A DNA stretch of 64,000 nucleotides from Candidatus Lloydbacteria bacterium RIFCSPLOWO2_01_FULL_50_20 (GCA_001821435.1 MHLP01000007.1:1620-65619); one strand, 5' to 3'; positions 11,887 through 58,305 are shown, counted from the stretch's first letter. The notes: generated by a model not told the origin, from the sequence alone. A program made the numbers and translations.

Positions 11887-12219
11887 GATCGCCGTCGGAG
11901 GAGCGCTCCGCTATTTCGGCAGTTACCATTAGAGCATAATTGCGAATAAATAGACAATTTACCGTGAAACACGCGAATGGAAACCAACGGTTCATTCAAT
12001 CATCATCTTCCTTGTGTTATAGTCTGAAAGTATTTGGCCGCTTAGACTGCAGATCGGGAATACGCATGAGAAAGAAAATCGTGTTTTCTTTCTCACCTGG
12101 AACGACGCCATCGCGTCCGGATACAGACCATGCAAAAAATGCAAACCTGTGCCATAGCTACGTTTGAACCGTAACTATTTCAGTTACGTTTTTATGCTTA
12201 AGTTTTGACTCGATGCGGC

Positions 12220-12305
12220 GGAGGAGGTGAGATTCGAACTCACGGTCCCCTTACGAGGACACTGCATTTCGAGTGCAGCGCACTAGACCACTATGCGACT
12301 CCTCC
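12220..12305 (-). tRNA. tRNA-Ser (anticodon CGA), class II long variable arm, no CCA encoded
   Basis: Reverse-complement fold: acceptor GGAGGAG/CTCCTCC, anticodon loop cuCGAaa, variable arm TCCTCGTAAGGGGACC, T-loop GTTCGAATC. Confidence 0.8.
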
Positions 12306-14962: not shown

Positions 14963-15104
14963 GCTCGGTTGTCGGTTTTATGATCTCGCCATTGATAATC
15001 GTGTATCCCTCCGATAACAGACGGTCGTGTACGCTGCGGAGCGCTTCGCCCAACTCAACGAGCGATGCGATGGTGTCATCGCTAAACGTCTGTTCCTCGG
15101 GACA

Positions 15105-15165
15105 CAAAGAGGGGCAACGAGAAGAGTCAGTGTTGCTACACAAAGACCCTCGTTGCCCCTCTTTG
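15105..15165. repeat. Perfect 17-bp inverted repeat (caaagaggggcaacgag / ctcgttgcccctctttg) with a 27-nt spacer, 140 nt upstream of the recombinase start
   Basis: Read directly; the spacer contains a cacaaaga direct repeat; candidate recombination site or regulatory hairpin. Confidence 0.6.
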
Positions 15166-15475
15166 GGTACAAGCTTGTTCTGCTCTTTTTGATCTTCGTG
15201 TAGCTCCTTCATAGTACAAAATGTGTCGCGCCCCGCAAGTCACTCCCTGGGGATCGACCGTCAGCCCAGCGTAGTCAAAGGAGACCGGTAATCCAAAGAC
15301 GCTGAAACGTGACTGGCAAGTCGCTCGCCGCTTGTTGGCCCAGCTCCGTCCAGACTTCCGATGTCAAATGTTTCGGCCTTAGGACTCGAGTCGCGACACG
15401 CGTTGCGCATGTTGTGAAGTAGGTACACCAGGGCAATCGTTATACGATTAGGGGCATATTCATAACCCCTCTCGT

Positions 15476-19255: not shown

Positions 19256-19304
19256 ATATCAAGGGAGATAAAAACTTTATTCATTTAATTCTGAACTGAA
19301 AAAC

Positions 19305-19670
19305 ATGTTAGAAAATATTATGATTGCTTGCTTTTTCCTTGCCGGATTTGATTATCTATTTTTTGGTAAAGTGCTAATTACTTACCAGTTCACCGAAACC
19401 GAATTGAGGGTGATCTTATTAAAATTATTTCCACTACACATTATTCCCCTCAAAATAGTGGAGAAAGTTGAAAAGATTTCATACCCCAAAATGTTTGCGG
19501 GAATGGCAATTTATGTCAGCGCATTTCGTTCACGCGCATTTGGTGGCGGTGTTCTCATTAGAACAAGTACCAAGCATGGTAATGAAGTCGTTGTGACCCC
19601 CCCCCGTGTTGACGAATTCATTTCGGAAGTTAAGAGACGCGTGAGAGAAAAAACCAGAAGAGAAATATAA
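19305..19670 (+). CDS. Candidate immunity protein (small membrane-anchored protein immediately downstream of the toxin C-terminal domain)
   Basis: Position immediately 3' of the RHS C-terminal domain; AT-rich; N-terminal TM segment (IMIACFFLAGFDYLFFGKVLI). Confidence 0.45.
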   Translation: MLENIMIACFFLAGFDYLFFGKVLITYQFTETELRVILLKLFPLHIIPLKIVEKVEKISYPKMFAGMAIYVSAFRSRAFGGGVLIRTSTKHGNEVVVTPPRVDEFISEVKRRVREKTRREI

Positions 19671-35651: not shown

Positions 35652-37040
35652 TTAAAATCCGTAAGTGGACGGCGCGAGGAGAATAAAATTCACCAGTATG
35701 AGCAGTCCGACGAACGCCGCGAGCGTAAGCGCAAGCATCCTGTCGCCGGAAACCCGTGCGATGCAGTTCACGATGCGCGGCGCGATGCGAGGGAAGAGCA
35801 GAAAGAGAAAGATAAGTGAAGTGAAATAATGATAGAGGAACATCGGACGATGAATGAGAAAAAAGGGAAGATAATTCATGAGGTAGCCGAGAAGAAGAAT
35901 GGATTCGTTGCGGTCGATCGGAAAACGACGGTCGCGAAAGTAATGGGCGGCGATCCAGATGAGTTCAAAGATGAGCGCAAAGAATGTCACGATCCACAGA
36001 AGGGAGTTTCCGGTGAGGATGATGAACTTGTTCCCTTCGGAATTCTTCCAGACCGCGATCACACTCCGTGCGGGCGGCCACGCAAGAGGGCCGGGCGCGC
36101 TGGTGATCCCTTTGGTGATCTCGGGGTCGCGGTTTGTCTCAAGCATGACGCGATGATGGGCGAAGAAAAATGACGCGATCGATCCCGGGCGGTGTTCCCC
36201 TGGAAACTCGAGCTCAGTGACGATGGGAACGTCGTAAGTTTTAAGTACAGGGTCCGTTTTTCCGCCCCCAGGGAAAGAAAAAAGAAAAACAGTGAATATG
36301 GCGGTATAAACAATGGCAACAATTATCCCGGAGATAAAGATCTCGCGGTACATTTTTGCAAGAAGATAAGCGATGAAGACGACGCCGACAACACCGAGCG
36401 CCGTCCATTTGATCGAAACGGCAAGTCCGAGTGCGAGCGCGGCGGTGATAACTAGCGCGTATCTTTTCCACCCGGCAGTTTTTTTTGTCGCGGCAAAAGC
36501 GGCCAGGAATCCGGAGAATACACAGACGAGAAGGATCGTGTCGGGAAGCATCGTGCGGGAATAGAAGACCAGTGCATTATCGAATACGACAAAAAGCGCG
36601 GGAATCATTGCTATGCGCGGAATGTAGCCTAGGGTTCGCGCGAGAGCGTACACGAGCGGCACGAGCAGTATGCCGAAGAGTGCTACGAAGAAACGGAGTG
36701 CGACATACGGAAAATCCTGAAAGGACTGATTGATCGCTATCGGGATCGTCGAAACCTCGAAAGGGAAAAAACTTGCGACCTCGGCAAAGAGCATGCGTGC
36801 GAGCGGAGGGTGAATATCGAAGAAAGGCGCACCCGCAATGATGTTGATGGCAAAATTCGCATGGAGCACTTCATCGAAAAGTGTCTGGTTTGGATGACTC
36901 AAAAAAGGAACACGAAGAAGTACCGCAAGCATAATGATAAAAAGAACGATACCGGTGTCCTTTACCGTGTGCGCCAGGAACCACGCACGGACCGTATTTG
37001 CGAACCGAATGACCGGCTCAAATGTACTCCGGAGGTGCAT
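35652..37040 (-). CDS. GT39/PMT-family protein O-mannosyltransferase-like integral membrane glycosyltransferase
   Basis: FDEVLHANFA ... FFDIHPPLARMLFA matches the PMT DE and HPPL(G/A)K signature; about 11 TM helices. Confidence 0.65.
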   Translation of the reverse strand: MHLRSTFEPVIRFANTVRAWFLAHTVKDTGIVLFIIMLAVLLRVPFLSHPNQTLFDEVLHANFAINIIAGAPFFDIHPPLARMLFAEVASFFPFEVSTIPIAINQSFQDFPYVALRFFVALFGILLVPLVYALARTLGYIPRIAMIPALFVVFDNALVFYSRTMLPDTILLVCVFSGFLAAFAATKKTAGWKRYALVITAALALGLAVSIKWTALGVVGVVFIAYLLAKMYREIFISGIIVAIVYTAIFTVFLFSFPGGGKTDPVLKTYDVPIVTELEFPGEHRPGSIASFFFAHHRVMLETNRDPEITKGITSAPGPLAWPPARSVIAVWKNSEGNKFIILTGNSLLWIVTFFALIFELIWIAAHYFRDRRFPIDRNESILLLGYLMNYLPFFLIHRPMFLYHYFTSLIFLFLLFPRIAPRIVNCIARVSGDRMLALTLAAFVGLLILVNFILLAPSTYGF

Positions 37041-37473
37041 TGTTTTCTTTCCGGTAAGATTCGTGAAAAAGAAAAAATTTAAAGATCACGAATGTCACCG
37101 TTGAAAGGAGGAAGATCGTTGTCGCGATGACCAGAAGATAATATTGGAGCCCGACCGCCTCGGTGACGTATTTGACGATCACGGCTTGGAAGAGCGTGAG
37201 GATGACACTATAGGCGATGAAGCCGATCAGGCGTGAAAAATGACGCGAAGTGGTTTTGAATGTGACCAGCGTATGCAGGGTGAAATTATAGAGGAGATTG
37301 AACGTTGCGCCGATAAGATATGCCTTGAAATATCCCGGAAGTCCGAATACGAACGTCGTAAAAAACCACGTAAGAGATAGATTGATCGCGACACCCGAAA
37401 CGCCAGTCATGAAAAAATGAAAATATTTATGCCGGAACAATATTGATTGCGCAAGCGCGATAAGTTTTTTCAT
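37018..37473 (-). CDS. GtrA-family membrane protein
   Basis: 151 aa, four TM helices, GtrA-like pattern; overlaps the GT39 gene start. Confidence 0.55.
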   Translation of the reverse strand: MKKLIALAQSILFRHKYFHFFMTGVSGVAINLSLTWFFTTFVFGLPGYFKAYLIGATFNLLYNFTLHTLVTFKTTSRHFSRLIGFIAYSVILTLFQAVIVKYVTEAVGLQYYLLVIATTIFLLSTVTFVIFKFFLFHESYRKENNAPPEYI

Positions 37474-37712
37474 AGATTATTTTTTTGTCCGCCATTTTCC
37501 CGTGCTATACTGGATATCATCCTGACGGAAAGGACGCTCGAACGGATTCTATGATAACAGAAAACTCTATTGGTGTCAGGGTATTATGGTGAGTCTCATG
37601 AGCAGTCGCGGACACGTGAAGAATAACTATTTATAAATGCAACAGTTGAATATTATGAACGATAATCGAGCAGGATGCAGGGTGTTTTTGCCTGCGTCCT
37701 ATTTTTAGCTGA

Positions 37713-38450
37713 ATGAAATTTACACTGGTCATCCCTGCGTTCAACGAAGTTTCGGTGATCGTCCCCACGCTCACCGGCCTTTGCGACGGTTTTCGTTTTT
37801 TTTATGATATCGATTGGACGATTCTCGTTGTCGACAACGGTTCTACTGATGGGACGAGGGAAGCCGTTCTTGACTTCGGAAATAAGAACGTCAAATTGCT
37901 CCGCGTCGAGGAGAAAGGAAAGGGGAATGCCATAAGGAGAGCATTCGCAAAAACAGACGCTGATATCTTCGGATTCACCGACGCCGATTTTCCCATCGCG
38001 CCGGTGGATATCATTTCGGCCGCTCAACTCATCATGAACAATGCAGCTGATGTGGTCGTCGGCTCACGTCTTCTTCCTCAGAGCAAAAGTATCGGGAGAG
38101 AATGGTGGCGCACATGGAGTTCGCATGTGTTCAACTTGCTGGCGCGGGCGATCGTCGGTGTGGCCGTCAGCGATACGCAGTGTCCGCTCAAGTTGATGAA
38201 CGCAAAGGGGCTTACGGTCATGCTTGCGACGAGAGAGCCCACTTGGTTTTTTGATGTCGAATTTTTTGCGCTTTTGAGTGGTGTGGGACTGTCGGTCCTT
38301 GAAATTCCCGTTACATGGAACGAGCACCGCTATCCGAAAAGAAAAAGCAAACTGAAACTTGCCGACAGTTTTCGCGCCGTACGGGCGATGTTCCGCATCC
38401 GCTCAATGATCCCGGCTCAGCTTTCACTGCTCCAGTCTATAAAAAGATAA
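37713..38450 (+). CDS. GT2 polyprenyl-phosphate glycosyltransferase (Dpm1/GtrB-like)
   Basis: VIPAFNE ... VVDNGSTDGT ... TDADF GT-A fold motifs (DxD). Confidence 0.75.
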   Translation: MKFTLVIPAFNEVSVIVPTLTGLCDGFRFFYDIDWTILVVDNGSTDGTREAVLDFGNKNVKLLRVEEKGKGNAIRRAFAKTDADIFGFTDADFPIAPVDIISAAQLIMNNAADVVVGSRLLPQSKSIGREWWRTWSSHVFNLLARAIVGVAVSDTQCPLKLMNAKGLTVMLATREPTWFFDVEFFALLSGVGLSVLEIPVTWNEHRYPKRKSKLKLADSFRAVRAMFRIRSMIPAQLSLLQSIKR

Positions 38451-48032: not shown

Positions 48033-48518
48033 ATGAATGAACATGAGAGATTTATGATGAAAGCGATAGAAGCTGCGCATGAGTCAGGGCACAGGAGCGA
48101 TTATCCTATCGGGACAGTCATCGTTAAAGATGGAGAGATAATTTCGAGTGGATACGAAACACTCAAATCGGCAAACGATCCTGTGAATGGCCACGCAGAA
48201 ATTGACGCTATTCGCAAAGCAACCCGGGAAATTTTGAAACAACCTTATCTTGAAGGTTGCACCCTTTACTCCACACACGAGCCTTGCCCGATGTGCGCCA
48301 CGGCCGCTTTTTGGTCAAAAATAAAAACTATTGTTTTTTCGGTTTCTCGGGAGGATATGATCGAACAAATGCCGAAAAGGGCATCCGGCAAGTTTTCGTG
48401 GAGACAGGTGGACATCTCATGCAAGGATGTTCTCGATCATGGCAGCGGGCATATGGTTGAACTTATTCCGAGCGTACTTCGCGAAGAAGGAATAAAACTT
48501 TTTGATTATACCGCTTAG
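48033..48518 (+). CDS. tadA: tRNA-specific adenosine deaminase / CMP-dCMP-type deaminase
   Basis: HAEIDAI and HEPCPMC zinc-binding motifs. Confidence 0.75.
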   Translation: MNEHERFMMKAIEAAHESGHRSDYPIGTVIVKDGEIISSGYETLKSANDPVNGHAEIDAIRKATREILKQPYLEGCTLYSTHEPCPMCATAAFWSKIKTIVFSVSREDMIEQMPKRASGKFSWRQVDISCKDVLDHGSGHMVELIPSVLREEGIKLFDYTA

Positions 48519-48540
48519 TTAAAAACGGTTTTAGGGTTTA

Positions 48541-48567
48541 GGGGACAGGTTTAGGGGACAGTCCCTC
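48541..48567. repeat. REP-like doublet upstream of the RAYT gene (ggggacagg ttta ggggacagtccc)
   Basis: Read directly; inverted counterpart at 49256..49285. Confidence 0.65.
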
Positions 48568-48599
48568 GAATAAGTAATTTATTGTGTTATAGTATTTTC

Positions 48600-49232
48600 A
48601 TGCCACGGCAACCACGCATCGCATTGGGGGGATATGTCTACCACGTGCTTAATCGTGCCAACGGCAGGGCGCGTATATTTCACACACCGGAAGCGTATAG
48701 GGAGTTTGAGCAGTTACTTTGTGAGGCGAATGAGCAATTTCACATGCGCATCCTTGCTTATACCCTTATGCCCAACCACTGGCATCTACTCCTTTATCCG
48801 CGAGAAGACACGGATATGCCCGACTTTGTGCGCTGGCTCTCTACGACGCACGCGGCAAAATTCCGCAACAAAACCAAGACAGTCGGCGAAGGCCATCTCT
48901 ACCAAGGGAGATACAAATCTTTTGTCATGGACACTGATACACATCTCCTCACTGTTTTGAAATACATTGAACGCAATCCAGTGCGGGCAAAACTTGTTGT
49001 ACATCCTGAGGATTGGGAATGGGGAAGTGCATACCGCAGAATATGCGGGACAAAAAAGGCACAAGCGTTACTTGCGGTCTCGCCAACGCCACTCCCGCAT
49101 CATTATCGTGCGTGGATCAACGGTGCGGAAAAATCTGAAGAACTCGATGAACTTCGCAAATCCGTCAATAAGGGTATCCCGTTTGGGGCGGAAGAATTTC
49201 TCTACCGTTTTGATCGAGGCAAGAAAAAATAA
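48600..49232 (+). CDS. HUH Y1 transposase, REP-associated tyrosine transposase (RAYT)/IS200-like TnpA, full length
   Basis: HUH motif LMPNHWHLLLYP, catalytic Tyr region LYQGRYKSF; flanked on both sides by inverted GGGGACAG REP doublets. Confidence 0.8.
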   Translation: MPRQPRIALGGYVYHVLNRANGRARIFHTPEAYREFEQLLCEANEQFHMRILAYTLMPNHWHLLLYPREDTDMPDFVRWLSTTHAAKFRNKTKTVGEGHLYQGRYKSFVMDTDTHLLTVLKYIERNPVRAKLVVHPEDWEWGSAYRRICGTKKAQALLAVSPTPLPHHYRAWINGAEKSEELDELRKSVNKGIPFGAEEFLYRFDRGKKK

Positions 49233-49255
49233 TAACATGTTTGTAAACTTTTTGG

Positions 49256-49285
49256 AGGGACTGTCCCCCAATTCCTGTCCCCCAA
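49256..49285. repeat. REP-like doublet downstream of the RAYT gene, inverted relative to 48541..48567 (gggactgtccccc aattcc tgtccccc)
   Basis: Its reverse complement, gggggacagg aatt gggggacagtccc, matches the upstream doublet. Confidence 0.65.
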
Positions 49286-49319
49286 TTCCAATTCTAATTC
49301 CCAGGTCAATACGGGTTTT

Positions 49320-49544
49320 ATGCTCGAAGTCATCAAAGAAAGCAAATTTAAGGCGACATTGCTTTCCGTGCGGTCTCAGGTTAATGAATTCGTGAGTGCG
49401 CTTGCAAGCTACGGCCTTGGACTTGCTATCGGCTATTTTTCATACCGGACGGGATTCGTTCTTTTGGCGGTAGGTTATCTTCTCTTGGCATTTCCTATTT
49501 ACTTTTTTATCCTTCGCGGTGGGCGATCTCCGGGCAGGCGATAA
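49320..49544 (+). CDS. Hypothetical small membrane protein
   Basis: 74 aa, two hydrophobic helices. Confidence 0.3.
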   Translation: MLEVIKESKFKATLLSVRSQVNEFVSALASYGLGLAIGYFSYRTGFVLLAVGYLLLAFPIYFFILRGGRSPGRR

Positions 49545-49605
49545 GATTTGCGCTTGTGCAAATAAAAAAACGGCGGATGAGCGTCCCGTCGTTTTGTTTT
49601 GCGTA

Positions 49606-49779
49606 TTATTCTTTCTTTTCGTCTTTTTCCCACACCACGAGTGTGAGACAGAATGCTCCGATCGTCAGCATTGTTGCCCCCAGTCCGTTCAGTATGCCGT
49701 GTGAACGGAACAGATAGGCGAGTCCGATGATGCCCGCCCAGATCGCAACAGTGGCGACGGCTTTCCCGATCTCTTTCAT
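49606..49779 (-). CDS. Unlisted small membrane protein (57 aa, below the ORF-track cutoff): MKEIGKAVATVAIWAGIIGLAYLFRSHGILNGLGATMLTIGAFCLTLVVWEKDEKKE
   Basis: Hand translation of the minus strand; two TM helices; terminator-like hairpin downstream. Confidence 0.3.
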   Translation of the reverse strand: MKEIGKAVATVAIWAGIIGLAYLFRSHGILNGLGATMLTIGAFCLTLVVWEKDEKKE

Positions 49780-49807
49780 TGTTGTCTTTCTCTGTCGGTT
49801 CTAACCG

Positions 49808-50050
49808 TTAGATCTTTACTTCGAGCTTTTTCATGAGTTCGGTAACGGCGCTTTGTATCGCCATCACCGGGTCGGTGCGCAGGAACACGCGGGGTTTTCT
49901 GGTCGTGTCGCTGGCGAAACGTGCGGATACTCGGTGAAAACCGCCTTCCTCGGACGACAGGGTGAGTGTAATGACGATGCCGCATTTTACCGCACTCTCG
50001 ATCGCCGCGTTGATGGCGAACTGTTTCGTACCTTCCATGATGCTCTCCAA
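49808..50050 (-). CDS. Hypothetical small protein
   Basis: 80-aa ORF, no confident motif. Confidence 0.3.
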   Translation of the reverse strand: MESIMEGTKQFAINAAIESAVKCGIVITLTLSSEEGGFHRVSARFASDTTRKPRVFLRTDPVMAIQSAVTELMKKLEVKI

Positions 50051-50192
50051 ATGATTATGAACGGGCCTTTCTCTTACTTTTGTCTACCATAGTCCCGCAG
50101 CCTGTAAAGGGTGCTGTAGTGAAGAGGGCATTACGAGACAACTGGGGATTCTGCGGTTCTCGCTTTAGAGCTCATGGTGCTATACTGAAAGC

Positions 50193-50759
50193 ATGTTTTC
50201 CGTTCCCGAAAAAAACGTCGAGGAGCTGCACCTTGCTCCCAATCAGACCGTTGCCGATTTCGGCACCGGAAGCGGCGCGTATGCTATCGCGGCGGCAAAA
50301 GCGATGCGTGGCACGGGAAAAGTCTATGCCGTCGATGTCCAGAAAGGCATTCTCACGCGGCTCGAAAATACCTGCAAAGAATATGGTCTGGGGAACATCT
50401 CCTTTATCTGGGGCGACCTGGAAAAGCCGGAGGGGACGCGGTTGCGCAATGATTCTTGCGATGCGGTGATCCTCTCGAATGTCCTCTCGCAGGCCTCTGA
50501 TAAAAAGGCGGTCATAGACGAAGTCAGGCGTGTCCTGCATCCGGGCGGAATATTGCTGCTCATAGACTGGACTGCATCATTCAATAATATGGGCCCCGTG
50601 AAGGAGCAGGTATTTCCGGAAGCGGAAAGTCGGAAACTCACCGAAGGATCCGGATTTCTTTTCGACCGCTCGATCAACGCGGGGAATTACCATTATGGGC
50701 TCGTCATGAGAAAAGTGATCTCCGCGGCTGCAAAAAAAGAAGAACACATTCACGCATAA
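50193..50759 (+). CDS. Class I SAM-dependent methyltransferase
   Basis: Motif I VADFGTGSGAYAI; motif post-I KVYAVDV; LHPGGILLLIDW. Confidence 0.75.
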   Translation: MFSVPEKNVEELHLAPNQTVADFGTGSGAYAIAAAKAMRGTGKVYAVDVQKGILTRLENTCKEYGLGNISFIWGDLEKPEGTRLRNDSCDAVILSNVLSQASDKKAVIDEVRRVLHPGGILLLIDWTASFNNMGPVKEQVFPEAESRKLTEGSGFLFDRSINAGNYHYGLVMRKVISAAAKKEEHIHA

Positions 50760-50769
50760 GCATATCCAT

Positions 50770-52098
50770 ATGAAATTTCAAACCATACTCCTTGCGATCT
50801 TCGGTGTCGTAGCGGTTGTCGCAGTCGTTATATTTTCGGTCGTTCCGGTAAAAAATAGTTCAAAGAACCAGGGAACGGTCGGTGCGGTGGGCGGCGTGAC
50901 GATCTGGGGAACTTTCCCGTCGACGAGAGAGCTGCTCAAGGTCTTCGAGATATTCAATGCCGGATATAAAGACAGTTTTGCGGTGAATTATGAATTTCAC
51001 GATCCCGCCGTTTTTGACAATGACATTGTCGAGGCGCTTGCCTCGGGGCGCGGTCCCGATATTCTTCTTCTTCCCGACGATCTCGTGCTTCGCCATTCCG
51101 ACAAGATCGAGCTTATTTCGTATCAATCCGTACCGCAGGTCGTCTTTCAGTCGAATTTCATTCAGGCGGCGGAGATCTACATGCGCGACAAAGGGCTGAT
51201 CGCGCTTCCGTTCGCGATCGATCCGATGGTCATGTATTGGAATCGCGATCTGTTCAACAACGCCTCACTTACCGAACCGCCGCGTTACTGGGACGAGCTC
51301 TTGACGATGACGCCGAAATTGACGAAACGCGATCCGCAGACTTCCGATATCGTACAGAGCGCTGTCTCGTTCGGAGAATACGAGAATGTGCTTTTTGCAA
51401 AGGATATTCTTGCCATGCTTTTCCTTCAGGTGGGGAACCCGCTGGTAGCCGTTCAGGATGGAAAACCCTACTCGAAGATCGTTACATCGAACGGGAAGGA
51501 AAATGTTCCTGCGCAGAATATCGTCTCTGCGTTCCGCTTCTACATGGACTTTTCGAACCCCCAAAAGCCGAATTATACCTGGGGACGCGCGCGCCAAAAC
51601 TCGCGCGACGAATTCATCAACGGGAATCTCGCGATCTATTTCGATTATGCGAGCGCATACAAGCCTATCCAGGAGAAAAATCCGCATCTGAATTTCGCCG
51701 TTGCGCAGGTACCGCTTCCGCGCGGCACTAACGCGGAGATCACCTTCACCAAAGTGTACGGGCTCTCGGTGCTTAAATCTTCGCGGAACAAACAGACGGC
51801 TTTTGTTGCCGTACAGCACCTGCTCACAGATCCGTTGCCGGAAAGAAGTTTTGCGTCCGCTTTCGATCTTCCCCCCGTTATCCGGTCTTATCTGGCTCAG
51901 CCACCGACAGACTCAGCGCTTGCGGTATTCTATGATGCGGCGATCCGCGGCAGAACGTGGCTCGATCCGAAGCCTGAAGTGAGCAACAAGGCGTTCCGGA
52001 GAATGGTCGAGTCGGTTGCCTCCGGGCGGAATGACGTGAGCATTGCGATCGCCATACTTCACGGGGATATGGTTGCCGCACTCGCCCCATATCAATAA
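50770..52098 (+). CDS. Membrane-anchored extracellular solute-binding-protein-like protein (SBP family 1-like), no cognate permease nearby
   Basis: N-terminal TM/signal anchor; 442 aa with a periplasmic-binding-protein-like pattern; family call from memory, medium-low certainty. Confidence 0.4.
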   Translation: MKFQTILLAIFGVVAVVAVVIFSVVPVKNSSKNQGTVGAVGGVTIWGTFPSTRELLKVFEIFNAGYKDSFAVNYEFHDPAVFDNDIVEALASGRGPDILLLPDDLVLRHSDKIELISYQSVPQVVFQSNFIQAAEIYMRDKGLIALPFAIDPMVMYWNRDLFNNASLTEPPRYWDELLTMTPKLTKRDPQTSDIVQSAVSFGEYENVLFAKDILAMLFLQVGNPLVAVQDGKPYSKIVTSNGKENVPAQNIVSAFRFYMDFSNPQKPNYTWGRARQNSRDEFINGNLAIYFDYASAYKPIQEKNPHLNFAVAQVPLPRGTNAEITFTKVYGLSVLKSSRNKQTAFVAVQHLLTDPLPERSFASAFDLPPVIRSYLAQPPTDSALAVFYDAAIRGRTWLDPKPEVSNKAFRRMVESVASGRNDVSIAIAILHGDMVAALAPYQ

Positions 52099-52107
52099 TC
52101 TTTTGCC

Positions 52108-52527
52108 ATGAAAAAAAATTTACATTTCATTCTCCCGATGATCTTCATGCTTATGGTGTTCTCACTTCCTCTTGTTGTATCTGCGCAAGGACAATGGAGA
52201 GGCATTGTCGTGTGTGGTAATACGAGCGGCGGAAATCAAGGCCTTGATAGTCAGCCGTGTACTTTTAATGACATCATCAATCAGGTAAAAGTAGTGATCG
52301 ACTTCGCGCTTTTCAAGATCGCCGCCCCGCTTGCCGCCGTCATGTTCGCCTACGCGGGATTTCTCTATGTGACCAACCGCGGAAATGAATCGCAGATCAA
52401 GCAGGCACACGAGATCTTCTGGAACGTCTTCATCGGTCTGGTCATCGCGCTTGCCGCATGGCTCACCATGAATTTCATCCTTACTTTTTTCCTCGGTCAA
52501 GACTCGGCGTTCAATTTCTTAAGATGA
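52108..52527 (+). CDS. Pilin-like paralog 1 (VirB2/TrbC-like, T4SS-pilin-like): signal peptide ending VVSA|Q then two hydrophobic helices
   Basis: Signal peptide with A-Q junction; shared two-helix architecture with the eight following paralogs. Confidence 0.5.
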   Translation: MKKNLHFILPMIFMLMVFSLPLVVSAQGQWRGIVVCGNTSGGNQGLDSQPCTFNDIINQVKVVIDFALFKIAAPLAAVMFAYAGFLYVTNRGNESQIKQAHEIFWNVFIGLVIALAAWLTMNFILTFFLGQDSAFNFLR

Positions 52528-52568
52528 CCTTTTGCTCATACACTATCTTTCGCAGTAGTATTTGCTCT

Positions 52569-52931
52569 ATGTCCAAACAAAGTTTTTTTTCAAATGTTTC
52601 AGCGTTCATCCTCTTGTTTAGCGGTTGGGCCGTTGTTGCTCATGCGCAGACGTCAATGTACCAAAATCCGATTACCTACGGCGGTATTCGGACGATACCC
52701 GATCTTCTTATTGCCATCGTCGATCTGGTCTTTTTGATCGCCGTTCCCATTATCGTTATCTTTATCATCTATTCAGGATTTCTTTTTGTGACTTCAGGAG
52801 ACAATGAAGCCAATATCAAGAAAGCGAAGACGGTGTTCATGTGGACGGTTGTCGGGGCGCTCGTATTGCTCGGCGCCAAGGCGATCTCCGCGGCGATACA
52901 GAGTACTATTTTAAGTCTTGGCGCGACATGA
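52569..52931 (+). CDS. Pilin-like paralog 2 (signal peptide ending AHA|Q)
   Basis: Start refined to MSKQSFF at 52569; same two-helix architecture. Confidence 0.5.
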   Translation: MSKQSFFSNVSAFILLFSGWAVVAHAQTSMYQNPITYGGIRTIPDLLIAIVDLVFLIAVPIIVIFIIYSGFLFVTSGDNEANIKKAKTVFMWTVVGALVLLGAKAISAAIQSTILSLGAT

Positions 52932-53299
52932 TCATTAATACAATAAAAAAATATCGCGTACTTCCATTTGTCGCCTCGACCGTGGTTTTGCTTTTTCCCG
53001 CAATTGTTTTTGCACAGCTCCCGCAGCCGACGGTGACGCTTTCCAATCCCGCTCCCGGTGCGGGATCAACACTTCAGGATTTCGTTTATCTGCTTATTGA
53101 GATCATCCAGTGGGTGGCGCTTCCCATCTTGGCTCTCTGTATCATCCATGCTGGATTTATCCTTGTTTCCGCCGGCGGCAATGAAGAAAAGATCACCAAG
53201 GGGAAGCTCTGGGTCATCTGGACCTTGGTCGGAGCGGCGATCATTCTCGGTTCTCGCGTCGTTGCCAATATCATTTTTGGTACGGCAAGCGTATTTTAA
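52928..53299 (+). CDS. Pilin-like paralog 3 (signal peptide ending VFA|Q)
   Basis: Start MIINTIKK at 52928 (ATGA overlap with paralog 2); same architecture. Confidence 0.5.
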   Translation: MIINTIKKYRVLPFVASTVVLLFPAIVFAQLPQPTVTLSNPAPGAGSTLQDFVYLLIEIIQWVALPILALCIIHAGFILVSAGGNEEKITKGKLWVIWTLVGAAIILGSRVVANIIFGTASVF

Positions 53300-53305
53300 C
53301 CATAT

Positions 53306-53674
53306 ATGATCTCACGATATAAAAAATTTCGGCAAATACTCCTCACGATCGCGGCTCTTTTCATGCCCGTTATCGCGTTTGCACAGGCGCCGACAAATTT
53401 CAGGGAGTTTGCCTCGCTTGTTGTCAGAATGCTCCAGAGCGTTATTGCCGTTCTTTTCGTGTCGCTTGCCGTCGGCCTCGTGTTTGGCGTGGTGTTGTTC
53501 TTGGCGAATGCCGATAACGAAAAAAAGCGCATGGAGATCAAGGGATATCTGCTTTGGGGTGTTATCGGTATCATCGTGGTTATGGGTATCTGGGGTATTC
53601 TTGAGACACTCAGTGTCAGTGTCTTCGGTCCCGGTGCTGTCGGCATTCCGCAGTTGAGGCCTCCCGCATTATGA
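53306..53674 (+). CDS. Pilin-like paralog 4 (signal peptide ending AFA|Q)
   Basis: Same architecture; conserved GxxLWGxIG segment. Confidence 0.5.
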   Translation: MISRYKKFRQILLTIAALFMPVIAFAQAPTNFREFASLVVRMLQSVIAVLFVSLAVGLVFGVVLFLANADNEKKRMEIKGYLLWGVIGIIVVMGIWGILETLSVSVFGPGAVGIPQLRPPAL

Positions 53675-54042
53675 AATACAGACATCTTACCTTGATCCAG
53701 TCGGGCGCCCTGTTTTTCGCTTTCCCGTTTATCGGCTCTGCGCAGGTGAATGACGTTTTTGGGCTTGCGACGCTGGCCTATAACATCCTCGTACGGCTCG
53801 GTTCGCTCTTCTGGATATTAGCAGTGATGCTTTTTGTGTGGGGGATCGTCAAATTCATCGGCAATGCCGGCGACTCGGCTGCGCATGCAGAGGGAAAGAA
53901 ATTCATTGTCTGGGGACTCATTGCTTTTGTGGTGCTGACGTCACTTTGGGGCATTGTGAACTTGGTTCTCTCAGACACATTCAACATCACCCCGGGAGGA
54001 CAGGTGCAATATGTCGATAAAACCGGCAATATCGTCAATTAG
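53671..54042 (+). CDS. Pilin-like paralog 5 (signal peptide ending GSA|Q)
   Basis: Same architecture; ATGA overlap with paralog 4. Confidence 0.5.
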   Translation: MKYRHLTLIQSGALFFAFPFIGSAQVNDVFGLATLAYNILVRLGSLFWILAVMLFVWGIVKFIGNAGDSAAHAEGKKFIVWGLIAFVVLTSLWGIVNLVLSDTFNITPGGQVQYVDKTGNIVN

Positions 54043-54288
54043 CCGATTTTTTGCTGGTCACAGTCTTACTATTGGTGATTAGAAAAATGGCCTTAAATAA
54101 GGATTTTTTTGTGTTCATGCCAATTAGTTTACATGGCGGCCTAGTTGAGATCAACAAAAAGTCCGTTTTTGAGTAATCCACAGAGCCTTGCGAATAATCA
54201 TTGCCCCAATTCAACAAGTGGGCTATTATAAATTTATTGTTTTATAGGAGGTTGTTTGCAATTTTATTAACTTATTTTTCATTTAAAT

Positions 54289-54642
54289 ATGAAGAAAATT
54301 ATTACTGGTGCTCTGTTTCTCGGCCCGATGACGGCTTTCGCGCAGGGAACACCTCTCCTGAATACGGTAAATCAGATCAGTCAGATCGTGGGTCTTTTGA
54401 TCCCACTCCTTCTGGCGGTTGCGGTTCTTCTCTTTTTCTGGGGATTGGTCAAGTTCATTGCCAATGCTTCTGACGAGGCGGCAAAAGAGTCAGGCAAAAC
54501 CCTGATGATCTGGGGTATGATCGCCATCTTCGTCATGGTCGCTTTCTGGGGGATCATCGGTTATGTTCAGCAGTCGCTTGGTGTCACGGGTAGCGTTACG
54601 ACCACCGCACCGCCTGTCGTGAATGTTGTCCCTGCATCCTAA
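54289..54642 (+). CDS. Pilin-like paralog 6 (signal peptide ending AFA|Q; C-terminal tail ...TTAPPVVNVVPAS)
   Basis: LFFWGLVKFIANASDEAAKESGKTLMIWGMIAIFVMVAFWGIIGYVQ core; own AT-rich promoter region upstream. Confidence 0.55.
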   Translation: MKKIITGALFLGPMTAFAQGTPLLNTVNQISQIVGLLIPLLLAVAVLLFFWGLVKFIANASDEAAKESGKTLMIWGMIAIFVMVAFWGIIGYVQQSLGVTGSVTTTAPPVVNVVPAS

Positions 54643-54653
54643 TTTATCTGAAC

Positions 54654-54953
54654 ATGTTTACTCCTTTTGGAAACACGCTGAGTATCATCAGTTACTATGT
54701 CAGCTTATTGGTTCCGCTCCTTCTGGCGGTTGCGATTGTACTCTTTTTCTGGGGACTGGTCAAGTTTATCGCCAATGCTTCTGACGAGGCGGCAAGGGAA
54801 TCCGGCAAAAATCTGATGATCTGGGGTATGATCGCCATCTTCGTCATGGTCGCCTTCTGGAGTATCATCGGCTACGTTCAGTCATCGCTTGGCGTCAGCG
54901 GGAATATCAATACCGGTTCTGCTCCGACAGTGAGCATTGTGCCGATGACGTAA
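54654..54953 (+). CDS. Pilin-like paralog 7 (no signal peptide; about 90% identical core to paralog 6; tail ...GSAPTVSIVPMT)
   Basis: LFFWGLVKFIANASDEAARESGKNLMIWGMIAIFVMVAFWSIIGYVQ. Confidence 0.5.
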   Translation: MFTPFGNTLSIISYYVSLLVPLLLAVAIVLFFWGLVKFIANASDEAARESGKNLMIWGMIAIFVMVAFWSIIGYVQSSLGVSGNINTGSAPTVSIVPMT

Positions 54954-55107
54954 TTACCGTTATTGCCGATATACAAAAATCCGTCCGTTAGGGGCGGATT
55001 TTTGCTTGTCCGAATAGAGAACCGTTGTCATTCTTTAATTCTTTTAAGAGGAGTTTTCCCCCTATGTTTTTTGTTCGGCAATACTTTCTTGCTATACTGC
55101 ATACATA

Positions 55108-55422
55108 ATGAATATATTACTTCCGAACATCGCGCATGCGCAGACTAGGCCGCCCGACTCCGTTCTTGTTTTGGTGGGAAAAATCTCCACAGAGATATTG
55201 AATCCGATCATCGCCATTATGTTTTCGCTTGCGCTGGCGTATTTTATCTATGGCGTTGCGGCCTACCTCTGGAATCCCGAAAATGAAGAAGCGCGGACAA
55301 CGGGAAAAAGAGGAATGCTCTGGGGTGTGATCGGCATGTTTATCATGGTTTCGGTCTTCGGCATTATGCAGTTTCTTATCAGATCCATCGGTGCCGATCC
55401 TAATCTGATGAAGTATGTCTAA
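55108..55422 (+). CDS. Pilin-like paralog 8 (signal-like N-terminus ending AHA|Q)
   Basis: Same two-helix architecture (MLWGVIGMFIMVSVFGIMQF). Confidence 0.45.
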   Translation: MNILLPNIAHAQTRPPDSVLVLVGKISTEILNPIIAIMFSLALAYFIYGVAAYLWNPENEEARTTGKRGMLWGVIGMFIMVSVFGIMQFLIRSIGADPNLMKYV

Positions 55423-55717
55423 CGGAATACTCGGAGTCATTGATATTGTCATCGCCCTCATATCTGCGATCATACCTGTCTTAGTCGGTTTTGCGGTTGT
55501 GGTTTTTTTCTGGGGAGTGGTCAAGTTTATCGCTCATTCCGGCGATGAAAAGGCTCTTCAGGAAGGGAAACAGCTGATGATCTGGGGAATGATCGGCATC
55601 TTCGTTATTGTTGCGCTCTGGTCTGTGGTCGGCTATATACAGATGTCACTTGGCCTCAATCTTGTAACTCCTTCGCGAACGGCACCGTCCGCACCGACGG
55701 TCATTCCCGCGATCTGA
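55415..55717 (+). CDS. Pilin-like paralog 9 (no signal peptide; tail ...TAPSAPTVIPAI)
   Basis: VVFFWGVVKFIAHSGDEKALQEGKQLMIWGMIGIFVIVALWSVVGYIQ closely parallels paralogs 6 and 7. Confidence 0.5.
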   Translation: MSNGILGVIDIVIALISAIIPVLVGFAVVVFFWGVVKFIAHSGDEKALQEGKQLMIWGMIGIFVIVALWSVVGYIQMSLGLNLVTPSRTAPSAPTVIPAI

Positions 55718-55844
55718 GGCCCCACTCACCCTCGTTTTTCCGATAAAAAAACCCTGTAGTAGGCCGCTTCCGAGCGGACTTACTACAGGGTTTTGCACTT
55801 TTGTTCGAGGGTGAACCCTCGATGGTGCTAATGTACAATTTGAG

Positions 55845-57155
55845 TCATCTTTTCCGAAAGAATCGCAGCATTATCTTCGGGATCGGCGGCGAACTCCATA
55901 TCCCAAAGTTATCACGATTGGGGAGGCTGTTCGGGCCGTAGAGATACGCAGTGAATGCCGTACCCCACGTGTCGACCTCCAGATAATAGTAACCGGAGAT
56001 CTTTCCGCCGCGGTCTTTCCAATCACCCACGCAGGTCTTTGACGCCCGCTTGTGGGAGACATATCCGCATGACCCCGGGGTACTTTTGAGTTCGATGTCG
56101 AGATCGGCGAATGCTTCCCCAAAACCGAGCGTCAAGTTTGCCGCATCAGTCACTTCTCGTCTTGGCTTTGGCAGGATATGGATCCTTTTTCCGTTCCACG
56201 CTCCTTGCGGAACGACGTACTGCGGATTCGCCGCAACATACTCCACCCACCAATTTTCTCCGAGATCCTTCGACGTCAAATTTGGTTCCCTCGGTACTCC
56301 CGGTGGGATGAGCGGATCCTTTGGTCCGCCCAATGTTTGTCCGGAGAGTGGCAGTTTCTTTCCGGTCAATTCTTCCCATGCTCCTTCGGGAGCCATGAAC
56401 ACATAGTAGGCACCGACAAGTAGGGTAGACAGGAACGCAAGCCGGAACAGCAGCATGGTTGTTGTCGTAAGACCAGGATATGCCGCTTTCTCTTTTCCGC
56501 CGTTCCTTATTTTGGATGCCATCCTCGCCCTTGCGACGAAAAGATAGAGCACCCATAATACTGCCGAGATCCACACCAGGTTCGGCGTGGTGATCAGTTT
56601 TGGACTGTACCACCACATCGCCCCAAGCATTGTCACCAACAATATCCATGTAACGGGATACGTCAGTGAATCAAGGAAAACATCTCCGAGGGTGTGGTTG
56701 GGCACCGTCTTGGTGATCGTACCTTGTGTCAGTGCTGCCGGACCCGACGACGGTGTTACAGATGTTACTGTCGGCCTTTTCCTGCGTGGAAGCTTCCTGA
56801 GAAGAATGACGCCTGCGATGAACATGATGAGCAACAGTGTCACCGCAAAGCTCCACAGAATGATTTTTGCAAGACTGCCGACGGTGTTTCCGGAAAAGAA
56901 GTAGGACAACAAGAGCAGTGAGATCATCAAAAGACCGAACACGATCCCTGCCCTATAACGTTTCATTCTTATTCCCTTTTCCTTTCGGAAGATACGCAGG
57001 GCGGACATGGTGACGCCTGCAAGATACTTCATTGTCCCCGCAAGCGCCTTCTGGAACTTCACCAAACGTTGTTTAACGTTGAGTTTTCGGAGCATTCTTT
57101 TTGATCTCCTCAAGGATCTGCGCATTAATGGGGTCGACCTGCTGATCTCCCCCAA
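55845..57155 (-). CDS. Hypothetical polytopic membrane protein with a C-terminal extracytoplasmic domain
   Basis: 436-aa ORF, several TM helices, Cys/Trp/Tyr-rich C-terminal region; no motif. Confidence 0.4.
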   Translation of the reverse strand: MGEISRSTPLMRRSLRRSKRMLRKLNVKQRLVKFQKALAGTMKYLAGVTMSALRIFRKEKGIRMKRYRAGIVFGLLMISLLLLSYFFSGNTVGSLAKIILWSFAVTLLLIMFIAGVILLRKLPRRKRPTVTSVTPSSGPAALTQGTITKTVPNHTLGDVFLDSLTYPVTWILLVTMLGAMWWYSPKLITTPNLVWISAVLWVLYLFVARARMASKIRNGGKEKAAYPGLTTTTMLLFRLAFLSTLLVGAYYVFMAPEGAWEELTGKKLPLSGQTLGGPKDPLIPPGVPREPNLTSKDLGENWWVEYVAANPQYVVPQGAWNGKRIHILPKPRREVTDAANLTLGFGEAFADLDIELKSTPGSCGYVSHKRASKTCVGDWKDRGGKISGYYYLEVDTWGTAFTAYLYGPNSLPNRDNFGIWSSPPIPKIMLRFFRKR

Positions 57156-58305
57156 CTTGCATGATGACTGTACCCGCCTCTTTTGCGACGTTGACTTGCG
57201 TTTGCTGGTCGATAAGTTTGAGGCCTAATGCACCTTGTGCACGTGCCTCTTTTGCCAATTCGCGCATATAACCCGCTTCAGCAGTGGCATCAGCGGCTCG
57301 GAGAGTTTTTCTCTTATCGGCTTCGGCACCAGCTTCGATTCTTACCACTTCGGCCTTACGGTCAGCAGTGTACTTCAACGTCCGCGACTTATCGGCTTCC
57401 GGGTCGGACATCTCCATTGTTTCGATGAGTACGCGAGAAACTCGAACACCGAAAAGTTTTTCGGTACCCGGGCCTTCGTCGATCTGGGTACTCACTTTGG
57501 CGAGGTCAACATTGAGCAGTTCGCGAAGTTCTGAGCCCTCCTCTACATCTTTCCCCAGTTCTCCAAGGAGTGTATCGAAGTCTCTCGCTCTCACGAAATT
57601 TCTTCCGCGGACTTGTATCGCAGCGATGGACTGCTGAAGCCACTTAATATCACCAAATGCGGATTTCCAGGGATTGATGATCTGGAAAGTCACTTTTCCG
57701 CGAAGAGTTGCCTTGACGTTTTCCTGTCTACCTGTGTCCGTATCGGTGATAGTGATGGAGTATGTCTGTTCGGAAAGCAGGAAATAGTCAGAGTTATCGG
57801 TGACGCCGATAACCTTGAGGTGACCGTCACTGCTCATCAACTCCTTGGTCCGTGCAAATTCGTATATGTAGATGTGTTCATTGAACGGATTGAAGAATCG
57901 ATACCCCGAATGACGATAGATGTAAGCGTCAATGCTTCCCATTTCCTCTTGAGGCGGCGCTTCGTTTTGTTGGAGTGGAACAATTTCATATTTATCTGGA
58001 GCTGTTGCACCCCCGCGCTGCTTGAATTGCTCACTATTGAGCAAACCAGACACTACTTTCCCGCCCCTCATTTTGAATTTGAATTTGTTCGGTCCGACCT
58101 TGGTCGTGGCTGCGAACTTGGCGGGATCATTCGGGTCATTTTCAAAGAATCTTGCAAGAATGGGAAGCCAGATCGAGACGGTAGCATGTGCGACCAAAAC
58201 GATCGCCAGCAACATTCCCATCAGCATTCCGAGTGCGATAAGCATAATGCGCTCCTTCTGTGATTTGCCGCATATTACAACGAATTTCTGAAAAAACTGT
58301 AACAA
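57073..58305 (-). CDS. SPFH/band 7 domain protein (stomatin/flotillin/HflK-like)
   Basis: N-terminal TM anchor; SPFH-like core; long Ala/Glu-rich coiled-coil C-terminus. Confidence 0.55.
   Translation of the reverse strand: MLQFFQKFVVICGKSQKERIMLIALGMLMGMLLAIVLVAHATVSIWLPILARFFENDPNDPAKFAATTKVGPNKFKFKMRGGKVVSGLLNSEQFKQRGGATAPDKYEIVPLQQNEAPPQEEMGSIDAYIYRHSGYRFFNPFNEHIYIYEFARTKELMSSDGHLKVIGVTDNSDYFLLSEQTYSITITDTDTGRQENVKATLRGKVTFQIINPWKSAFGDIKWLQQSIAAIQVRGRNFVRARDFDTLLGELGKDVEEGSELRELLNVDLAKVSTQIDEGPGTEKLFGVRVSRVLIETMEMSDPEADKSRTLKYTADRKAEVVRIEAGAEADKRKTLRAADATAEAGYMRELAKEARAQGALGLKLIDQQTQVNVAKEAGTVIMQVGGDQQVDPINAQILEEIKKNAPKTQR

Follow-up and report, generated by a model that had tools for sequence, protein, structure and literature searches.

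The window, by which we mean the whole analyzed 64,000-nt stretch of DNA from the ultra-small groundwater bacterium Candidatus Lloydbacteria, harbors nine tandem genes on the plus strand at positions 52108-55717. The nine ORFs (P1 to P9) are all complete and encode proteins of 99-139 aa, in agreement with the preliminary description, which had reported nine same-strand paralogs with a common architecture. Their positions are given below also as slots, i.e., the places that they share with orthologous arrays of other genomes. P1 (slot 1) is located at 52108-52527 and encodes a 139 aa pilin-like protein with a leader (PF18895, 32.6 bits; orthologs 56% identical in the related loci L013 and L015); a Cys pair in its N-terminal extension is conserved in orthologs. 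It is followed by P2 (slot 2) at 52569-52931 (120 aa, 34.4 bits, orthologs 59-67% identical), P3 (slot 3) at 52928-53299 (123 aa, 26.5 bits against a cut-off of 26.6, orthologs 55% identical), P4 (slot 4) at 53306-53674 (122 aa, 26.7 bits, orthologs 50-54% identical) and P5 (slot 5) at 53671-54042 (123 aa, 33.5 bits, orthologs 44-54% identical), all of them pilin-like. The pilin-like P6 (slot 6) at 54289-54642 encodes 117 aa (35.8 bits, orthologs 55-74% identical) and its AF2 model is a hairpin. P7 at 54654-54953 (99 aa, without a leader) is a tandem duplicate of slot 6, as both P6 and P7 map to that slot elsewhere. Finally, the pilin-like P8 (slot 7) at 55108-55422 encodes 104 aa with a very short leader (25.7 bits against 26.6, orthologs 69% identical in L013 and L015), and P9 (slot 8) at 55415-55717 encodes a pilin-like protein of 100 aa without a leader (36.3 bits, orthologs 50-54% identical).

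Intergenic distances are 41, -4, 6 and -4 nt from P1 to P5, 246 nt between P5 and P6, 11 nt between P6 and P7, 154 nt between P7 and P8 and -8 nt between P8 and P9. The three sub-blocks described beforehand are present. P2/P3 and P4/P5 overlap by ATGA and P8/P9 by 8 nt, and the spacers between the sub-blocks are AT-rich (33% GC in the 246-nt and 38% GC in the 154-nt spacer vs. 47% in the array). The sub-blocks correspond to three conserved transcription units, namely methyltransferase-SBP-P1 to P5, with P5 as the final gene, P6-P7 and P8-P9. The array belongs to a conserved block consisting of gyrA, a methyltransferase gene, an SBP-like gene and the array itself. The methyltransferase (50193-50759, plus strand; class I SAM-dependent, Pfam Methyltransf_31/25/11) is probably encoded by the first gene of unit 1; it lies directly 5' of the SBP-like gene in 35 related loci and 10 nt from it in the window. 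The SBP-like gene (50770-52098, plus strand) encodes a membrane-anchored SBP_bac_1-like protein of 442 aa (PF01547, 65.9 bits), ends 9 nt 5' of P1 and is probably co-transcribed with P1-P5. Among the 64 related loci having at least 1.5 kb of upstream sequence, 60 carry a homolog of it directly upstream of the array, on the same strand and with a median gap of ~5 nt. Inherited synteny may account for this linkage, given that gyrA too is conserved in 52 of 78 loci, 2 kb upstream of the array. The tightness of the SBP linkage is left unexplained by the pilin model set out below. Downstream, a convergent gene named dA (55845-57095, minus strand) encodes a polytopic membrane protein with no Pfam or PDB match; it is a conserved neighbor in Lloydbacteria-like loci, 16 of which have a homolog on the opposite strand at a distance of ~85 nt downstream of the array.

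Three conserved promoters are predicted for the array, two of which would give apparently leaderless mRNAs. Alignment of 14 orthologous upstream regions placed that of unit 1 at 50142-50186 (plus strand). Its extended -10 TGCTATACT at 50178-50186 ends 6 nt short of the methyltransferase ATG, implying a leaderless mRNA, and a conserved element further upstream, CTGGGGATT (50142-50150; AATCCCCAG on the opposite strand), is related to the motif of slot 6. For unit 2, alignment of 17 orthologous upstream regions pointed to a promoter at 54174-54229 (plus strand), comprising the element TAATCCACAG (54174-54183), a 17-nt gap, a -35 TTGCCC (54201-54206), a 17-nt spacer and a -10 TATTAT (54224-54229), followed by a 5'UTR of ~59 nt. 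TAATCCACAG is an invariant DnaA-box-like 10-mer situated 17 nt 5' of the slot-6 promoter; it occurs once per locus and always at this promoter in 17 loci, and the copy described here is the sole exact one in the window. An intrinsic terminator is predicted after P7 (54983-55007, plus strand), where a hairpin followed by a T run is conserved in orthologous loci. Unit 3 has the same extended -10, TGCTATACT, at 55090-55098 (plus strand), ending 9 nt before the P8 ATG (6 nt in most orthologs), a distance that implies a leaderless or near-leaderless mRNA. Inspection of the sequence also led to a long perfect hairpin between an A run and a T run at 55745-55794, which is probably a bidirectional terminator between P9 and the convergent dA gene.

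Concerning protein architecture, hydropathy showed an N-terminal hydrophobic leader and two hydrophobic segments of ~19 aa in P1-P6 and P8. Hydropathy, alignment and the AF2 model of P6 agree on a leader and two hydrophobic helices joined by a short charged loop, with P7 and P9 lacking the leader; in the model, a leader helix (residues 3-16) is followed by a helical hairpin (22-58/63-97) and a disordered tail. The absence of signal peptides from P7 and P9, noted at the outset, holds, as both have two hydrophobic segments only and no in-frame start upstream, while the P9 orthologs in L013 and L015 retain a leader. The P8 leader is only 11 aa long and just as short in its orthologs. The seven leaders had been described as ending A-x-A before a Gln; Ala followed by Gln was found in all seven (VSA|Q, AHA|Q, VFA|Q, AFA|Q, GSA|Q, AFA|Q, AHA|Q), but strict A-x-A in four of them only. 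Mature VirB2 begins with an N-terminal Gln, and this residue had been taken as a sign of VirB2/TrbC-like processing. It is frequent in the array but not kept in orthologs, and hence is weak evidence for such processing. The three C-terminal tails ending in VVPAS, IVPMT and VIPAI were confirmed.

The family assignment was based on profile searches. PF18895 (T4SS_pilin) is the top Pfam match for all nine proteins (E-values from 1e-5 to 5e-9); seven reach its gathering cut-off of 26.6 bits (26.7-36.7 bits), and P3 and P8 fall short by less than 1 bit. Of the two families suggested in the preliminary description, the CPR-associated PF18895 is thus borne out, whereas PF04956 (TrbC/VirB2) matches colinearly but below its cut-off of 27.9 bits (P2, 20.0 bits, E-value = 8e-4; P4, 16.1 bits; no match for the other seven), and the L013 ortholog of P3 has a precomputed PF04956 match. 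NCBIfam NF045849 (Mbov_0395 pilin-like conjugal transfer) is the top NCBIfam match for eight proteins, at 13-31 bits against a cut-off of 40, and the UniRef name of P1 is 'TrbC/VIRB2 family protein'. Likeness to experimentally studied VirB2/TrbC pilins was detected neither by profile search of PDB sequences nor by tblastn against plasmids, and fold searches returned generic helical hairpins only, the top pilin match being the Aeropyrum conjugation pilus at rank 12 (E-value = 1.5). The nine genes are diverged paralogs that stand in tandem in the genome of a member of the Patescibacteria. We regard it as fairly likely that they are a chromosomal set of VirB2-like pilin genes (PF18895) of a monoderm-type T4SS.

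The whereabouts of the remaining machinery bear directly on this assignment. As the preliminary description had stated, VirB4 and VirD4 are missing from the window, since no gene called or scanned in the 64 kb has such a Pfam match, and in related loci the ORFs that were called or selected up to 10 kb to either side of the array include no T4SS machinery gene. Neither in the window nor among those ORFs does the array adjoin virB3/virB4, unlike the placement in virB/trb operons; in Paceibacteria it is detached from the T4SS genes. A published table (Table S1) nevertheless credits both assemblies containing these proteins, GCA_001821385.1 and GCA_001821435.1, with VirB4. Our literature search found no report of a T4SS pilus being sighted in Patescibacteria, and related monoderm T4SSs lack pilins. 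The genes could, alternatively, encode small bitopic membrane proteins independent of any T4SS, acting in an envelope or uptake module with the SBP-like protein and possibly the methyltransferase, so that 'pilin' would be a misnomer for the clade. The same-strand SBP linkage, the related cis element 5' of both the unit 1 and P6 promoters, the lack of VirB4/VirD4 within ±10 kb in related loci, the sub-threshold homology to bona fide pilins and the non-specific fold evidence all fit such a module. However, Saccharibacteria hold the same family inside a T4SS cluster and co-essential with it, VirB2-like genes lie near virB4 in 1135 assemblies (PMC12102498), and no ABC permease or ATPase gene was found beside the SBP-like gene. 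We thus consider this reading rather improbable.

Comparison with other genomes gave a clearer view of how the pilin-like genes relate to each other. Orthologous arrays, mostly of 4-8 tandem genes, were found in 78 loci of other genomes. Positional orthologs are about 50-69% identical vs. 15-52% between slots, and within the array the pairs other than P6/P7 range over 15-52% (mean 29%). The gene order 1-2-3-4-5-6-8-9 (P numbering) is found again in ~17 species and, P6/P7 excepted, paralogs are no closer within a genome than between genomes. Each of the eight slots is conserved as an ortholog across many species, and together they make up an old, stable set of distinct subunits, among which slot 6 (P6) is the most conserved. 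Within the same population, six public contigs (from four samples and an NCBI MAG) show 99.9-100% identity over the array and no structural variant or rearrangement; over that stretch L002, a contig of GCA_001821385.1, shows 100% identity with the window. P7 is a recent, lineage-specific and leaderless copy of slot 6 and the only lineage-specific member, and no second slot-6 copy was found in other Lloydbacteria-like loci. The ~90% identity claimed for the P6 and P7 cores is close to the 89% measured over the 64-aa core (74% over the full length). Their dN/dS (0.21 overall, 0.14 in the core) indicates purifying selection, and synonymous divergence is mosaic (0.36 in the core vs. 0.77-0.88 in the termini; Fisher p = 1.6e-4), a pattern compatible with gene conversion.

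These data bear on the switchable or diversifying repertoire proposed in the preliminary description. In such a repertoire the paralogs would be interchangeable surface variants, alternately expressed or recombined, that alter host range or evade host defences, a model put forward for the trwL paralogs of Bartonella and the virB2 paralogs of Anaplasma. The idea has been raised for Patescibacteria arrays in a 2025 survey (PMC12102498), and it would accommodate the strongest divergence lying in the exposed N- and C-terminal segments, the three separate promoters, the mosaic P6/P7 divergence and the ending of some public contigs inside the P6/P7 repeat. On the other hand, the slots are ordered and orthologous, paralog likeness within the genome does not exceed that between genomes outside P6/P7, and neither strong inverted repeats nor silent cassettes nor adjacent recombinase genes were found at the array. 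Together with the near-identical, unrearranged contigs, the purifying selection on P6/P7 and the finding that all six array genes of Southlakia are individually required, this leaves the proposal unsupported, and we judge it unlikely.

Under the preferred reading of a T4SS pilin set, leader-bearing precursors would be Sec substrates that signal peptidase I cleaves behind a small residue-x-Ala site (strict A-x-A in 4 of 7), while P7 and P9, having short and almost uncharged N-tails, could insert as hairpins without a leader. Mature two-helix hairpins would accumulate in the membrane, their two termini facing outward and the charged loop facing inward, and a VirB4-powered machine encoded elsewhere in the genome would extract and polymerize them into a pilus or conduit contacting the host cell. 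The conserved core would serve packing, and the slot-specific N-segments and Pro/Thr/Val tails would form the exposed surface. Retention of every slot makes it probable that the subunits are non-redundant. Slot 6, which shows the strongest conservation and is served by a promoter and terminator of its own, may for these reasons supply the major subunit, and the other slots would be minor or specialized subunits rather than interchangeable variants. A more elaborate version, which we consider improbable, is an eight-component heteromeric T4SS pilus or conduit with slot 6 as the major subunit, seven conserved specialized ones, expression set by a regulator binding TAATCCACAG, to which the reverse-oriented element before the unit 1 promoter is related, and the SBP-like protein and methyltransferase as true apparatus parts. 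If this were true and the regulator were DnaA, an obligate epibiont would thereby couple pilus production to its replication state.

Much of bacterial diversity belongs to the Patescibacteria, whose members apparently spend their lives attached to host cells, and their T4SS, pilin array included, is essential in the one species tested. In that species, Southlakia epibionticum, a six-gene PF18895 array (SEML1_0014-0019) lies within the T4SS cluster, and Tn-seq classes every one of its genes as growth-defective or essential (Wang et al., 2023, PMC10633639), while 441 arrays of 2-11 VirB2-like genes have been reported from Patescibacteria (Quinonero-Coronel et al., 2025, PMC12102498). An array of this kind is therefore already known. 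Although the locus does not represent a novel type of system, the picture is sharpened by comparison with related genomes, in which the pilin paralogs act like a fixed complement of different parts and not like spare variants. The new details are the detachment of the array from the T4SS, the gyrA-methyltransferase-SBP block, the three conserved promoters and the TAATCCACAG element. The array is co-organized with an SBP-like protein, and its conserved promoter elements offer handles for studying regulation. Our array shares with the reported ones the family PF18895, the phylum, tandem same-strand genes for 100-140 aa proteins with a leader and two helices, a low identity between members (mean 29% here vs. 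25% in the survey) and a gene number, nine, within the 2-11 range. Unlike the arrays in T4SS clusters, it is established beside gyrA and 3' of the methyltransferase and SBP-like genes; two of its members lack leaders, in contrast to the arrays compared, and P6/P7 reach 74% identity, whereas the maximum pair identity in the survey is 54%. With canonical VirB2/TrbC (Agrobacterium VirB2, RP4 TrbC), which are processed, cyclized and polymerized into an extracellular pilus, it has in common the leader, a two-helix hairpin of similar size, weak colinear HMM matches and, in seven of the nine proteins, Ala then Gln at the cleavage site. It differs in its sub-cut-off scores, the lack of virB3/virB4 adjacency, a monoderm host and multiple diverged pilin genes instead of one. 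NF045849 Mbov_0395 of Mycoplasma ICEs is likewise small, pilin-like and part of a conjugation system in a monoderm, although it is the product of a single-copy ICE gene and not of a chromosomal array, and all scores of the array proteins lie below the family cut-off. Finally, the TrwL (Trw) family of Bartonella and the VirB2 family of Anaplasma also comprise several diverged tandem pilin paralogs, which are thought to broaden host-surface interactions (cited in PMC12102498). Those arrays are described as amplification and variation in virulence-associated T4SSs, whereas the one analyzed here consists of old, ordered slots that are orthologous across species.

The nine pilin-like paralogs (P1-P9) are located at 52108-55717 on the plus strand and encode proteins of 139, 120, 123, 122, 123, 117, 99, 104 and 100 aa, respectively. 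Hydropathy and multiple alignment revealed a common plan of leader, short variable segment, helix, loop, helix and variable tail. The hydrophobic leader is present in seven paralogs, always ending in Ala followed by Gln, and is missing from P7 and P9. The loop between the two hydrophobic helices comprises 12-14 residues with the approximate pattern N-x-x-D/N-E-...-G-K, and the second helix starts with W-G. P6 and P7 share 74% identity overall and 89% over a 64-aa core; the remaining pairs are 15-52% identical (mean 29%). Successive intergenic gaps are 41, -4, 6, -4, 246, 11, 154 and -8 nt, with a GC content of 33% in the 246-nt spacer and 38% in the 154-nt spacer against 47% for the array. The preliminary description of the array was accurate in every checkable detail (ORFs, leaders, helices, identities and spacers), and chance ORFs were rejected as the identity of these genes. 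In P1 (52108-52527), the N-terminus is extended by about 35 aa; the two cysteines of this extension, C36 and C51, are kept in the orthologs at two related loci (L013 and L015) and probably form a disulphide-bonded exposed loop. Regarding the leaderless paralogs, the N-tail is short in both, with no charged residue in P7 and one in P9. Small coat proteins can insert in the membrane without a leader, and by analogy P7 and P9 could still take the hairpin topology.

Pfam searches returned PF18895 (T4SS_pilin) as the top match for all nine proteins (E-values from 1e-5 to 5e-9), so that their initial classification as T4SS-pilin-like was correct. The gathering score of 26.6 bits is reached by seven of them, P3 (26.5) and P8 (25.7) falling narrowly under it. 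Matches to PF04956 (TrbC/VirB2) are sub-threshold yet full-length and colinear (P2 with 20 bits, E-value = 8e-4; P4 with 16 bits), and those to NCBIfam NF045849, a Mycoplasma ICE pilin-like family, are also sub-threshold. P1 is already labelled 'TrbC/VIRB2 family protein' in UniRef. The AlphaFold2 model of P6 (70-sequence alignment, mean pLDDT 77) consists of a leader helix, a long helical hairpin (22-58/63-97) and a disordered tail. Foldseek gave no match for this model at E <= 1e-3, with the Aeropyrum conjugation pilin 8dfu at rank 12 only; since the hairpin resembles many others, a fold search cannot discriminate here. Searching the whole set of PDB sequences with a profile built from P1-P9, and 72,556 plasmids with P2 by tblastn, gave chance matches only. 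Membership in PF18895 is thus established by the profile scores, but homology to the experimentally studied VirB2/TrbC pilins is remote and inferential. Holin-like proteins were rejected as the identity of the array products.

Related loci were gathered through homologs and a scan of species-representative genomes with an alignment of ortholog positions (slots) 5, 6 and 8, and the roughly 430 pilin ORFs at these 78 loci were each labelled by the best-matching window paralog. P1-P6 represent slots 1-6, and P8 and P9 slots 7 and 8. The related loci share the array layout of the window. Every window paralog is most similar to the occupant of its own slot in L013 and L015 (50-69% identity), the SBP-like protein encoded upstream standing at 61% in the same comparison. 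The order 1-2-3-4-5-6-8-9 (in P-numbers) was found in about 17 Lloydbacteria-like genomes, and more distant Zambryskibacteria-like genomes keep a recognisable 1-2-...-6-8 order. The leader of the P9 orthologs is kept in L013 and L015 and absent in a further locus, L011. It had been proposed that the array is a switching or diversifying repertoire, and VirB2-like arrays have been suggested to help, possibly, adaptation to host strains (Quinonero-Coronel et al., 2025; PMC12102498). The proposal is not supported: slots and order are conserved, strong inverted repeats and adjacent recombinase genes are absent at the array, and six public contigs from this population are 99.9-100% identical and display no rearrangement. 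Judging from these comparisons, the array is old and ordered rather than a shuffling repertoire. The T4SS cluster of Southlakia epibionticum contains a series of predicted pilin genes, and six PF18895 genes (SEML1_0014-0019) appear in the tables of that study, all of them scored by Tn-seq as growth-defective or essential, with polar effects within the operon possible (Wang et al., 2023; PMC10633639). The individual requirement for all six, along with the conserved slots and stable contigs, favours non-redundant subunits over interchangeable variants, and we consider a variation repertoire quite improbable.

Both P6 and P7 are assigned to slot 6, and two slot-6 copies never occur in other Lloydbacteria-like genomes; this assignment makes P7 a lineage-specific duplicate. 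Compared with P6, it has a dN/dS of 0.21 overall and of 0.14 within the core, and these low values indicate a functional gene. The pair (54289-54953) is a mosaic, with a synonymous divergence of 0.36 in the core versus 0.77-0.88 in the N-segment and tail (Fisher p = 1.6e-4), which suggests that gene conversion, confined to the core, may have homogenised it. Two public contigs (L003 and L004) stop within P6, the first of the two repeat copies.

Alignment of orthologous upstream regions revealed three conserved promoters in otherwise unalignable DNA. For the first unit (methyltransferase, SBP-like gene and P1-P5), a predicted extended -10 TGCTATACT is located at 50178-50186 (+) and ends 6 nt before the methyltransferase ATG. 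The identical TGCTATACT is predicted for the third unit (P8-P9) at 55090-55098 (+), ending 9 nt before the P8 start (6 nt in most orthologs), downstream of a hairpin-plus-T-run terminator (54983-54999, +) conserved in orthologous loci. No Shine-Dalgarno-like sequence lies directly before the start codon of any of the nine array genes, and the short spacing from -10 to ATG implies leaderless or near-leaderless mRNAs for these two units. The second unit (P6-P7) has a predicted promoter on the plus strand with -35 TTGCCC (54201-54206) and -10 TATTAT (54224-54229), giving a 5'UTR of about 59 nt. A sigma-54 reading of the promoters was rejected. Exactly 17 nt upstream of the second-unit -35 is the invariant 10-mer TAATCCACAG (54174-54183, +), which has no second exact copy in the window and occurs once per locus at a fixed position in 17 loci (from the series L017-L037), with about 0.04 copies per locus expected by chance. 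When up to one mismatch is allowed, copies are five times as dense inside arrays as outside. The first promoter, too, is preceded by a conserved element, related to this 10-mer but in the opposite orientation (CTGGGGATT, 50142-50150; TGTGGAT in L021 and L022), and together the two look like a shared operator for a regulator. The DnaA-box consensus is TTATCCACA, from which TAATCCACAG differs by one base, and one locus (L092) has a perfect DnaA box at the TAATCCACAG position; DnaA as candidate binding factor is a lead and not a result. Rfam searches of 50-58.5 kb gave no match within the array. Between P9 and the convergent gene dA, a long perfect hairpin (55745-55794; 10-bp stem with additional pairing inside it, between A7 and T4), missed by the consensus terminator scan, is a probable bidirectional terminator. 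The product of dA (55845-57095, -) is a polytopic membrane protein whose C-terminal domain contains Cys. A second convergent gene, dB (57073-58245, -), codes for a protein that is hydrophobic near its N-terminus and has a long charged stretch towards its C-terminus; Pfam and PDB searches gave no match for either product. In 16 loci, a fast-evolving dA homolog follows the array after about 85 nt. A large protein database gave two dA homologs only, and the AF2 model of dA (pLDDT 47) is unusable.

Directly upstream of the array, an SBP_bac_1-like gene is found on the same strand in 60 of the 64 related loci with enough upstream sequence, separated from it by a median of about 5 nt. In 35 loci, the gene before the SBP-like gene encodes a class I methyltransferase, and gyrA lies about 2 kb upstream in 52 of the 78. 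In the window, the SBP-like gene (50770-52098, +) lies 9 nt upstream of P1 and its product is membrane-anchored. An apparent second SBP copy per locus was a clustering artefact merging the methyltransferase (50193-50759, +, in the window) with the SBP-like gene. The linkage is not mentioned in the Patescibacteria T4SS surveys examined, and it may either be functional or reflect inherited synteny. It could point to a T4SS-independent module acting with the SBP-like protein; no ABC permease or ATPase gene is close to the SBP-like gene. We regard such a module as unlikely. The interval between gyrA and the methyltransferase (48033-50190) is occupied by small ORFs together with genes for a dCMP deaminase and an IS200/IS605-type Y1 transposase (48582-49232). 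It is probably a lineage-specific insertion, as the methyltransferase comes no more than about 180 nt after gyrA in L013.

Concerning the secretion machinery, VirB4, VirB6 or VirD4 Pfam matches are absent from the genes called and scanned in the 64-kb window, bearing out the earlier remark that it holds no VirB4/VirD4 gene. Likewise, no VirB4/VirD4-like ORF (Walker A motif, at least 450 aa) was found within 10 kb on either side of the arrays at the 78 loci, where the search yielded only ClpB. Together with the conserved synteny, this means that the array in this clade is detached from the T4SS machinery and set in a conserved block. The window pilins also occur in NCBI MAGs named Candidatus Lloydbacteria bacterium (locus tags A2942_ and A3C13_), and contig MHLK01000046.1 (GCA_001821385.1) is 100% identical over the array. 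VirB4 is listed as present in GCA_001821385.1, GCA_001821435.1 and four other Lloydbacteria assemblies (Quinonero-Coronel et al., 2025, Table S1; PMC12102498). We consider it probable that the array proteins are subunits of a Patescibacteria T4SS pilus or conduit, both other readings being less likely. The pilin-like precursors would be Sec-exported, processed and then held in the membrane as hairpins, to be assembled by machinery encoded elsewhere in the genome, with conserved cores packing the filament and slot-specific termini exposed. The best candidate for a major subunit is slot 6, as it is the most conserved and has a promoter and terminator to itself. No pilus observation in Patescibacteria is reported in the literature examined.

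The remaining window is mostly housekeeping (gyrA, aminoacyl-tRNA synthetases, ftsA/ftsZ, IF-2 and ten tRNA genes), and it also carries RHS toxin, serine recombinase and Y1 transposase genes. A 1259-aa RHS/YD-repeat protein (SpvB, TEN_YD-shell) is encoded within 13349-19670, with the serine recombinase gene before it and a small ORF after it, making the region a possible mobile polymorphic-toxin island of this CPR genome. A LAGLIDADG endonuclease ORF (12291-13193, -) shares 15 nt with the end of tRNA-Ser(cga) (12217-12305, -). A cluster at 35652-38450 of PMT-family protein O-mannosyltransferase, GtrA-like and GT2 glycosyltransferase genes could, speculatively, add sugars to exposed stretches rich in Ser/Thr/Pro, the pilin tails for example.

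Pilin arrays are an already published class of feature, described by a 2025 review as the sole exception to monoderm T4SSs being without pilins; the new details here are the synteny block, the conserved promoters and the TAATCCACAG element, and the parts worth following are the promoter element, the link to the SBP-like gene and the conservation of slot order. VirB2-like genes were reported in 1,948 VirB4-containing assemblies, near virB4 in 1,135, with 441 arrays of 2-11 genes and a mean identity of 25% (Quinonero-Coronel et al., 2025; PMC12102498). In those surveyed Patescibacteria arrays identity reaches a maximum of 54%, whereas P6 and P7 stand at 74%.
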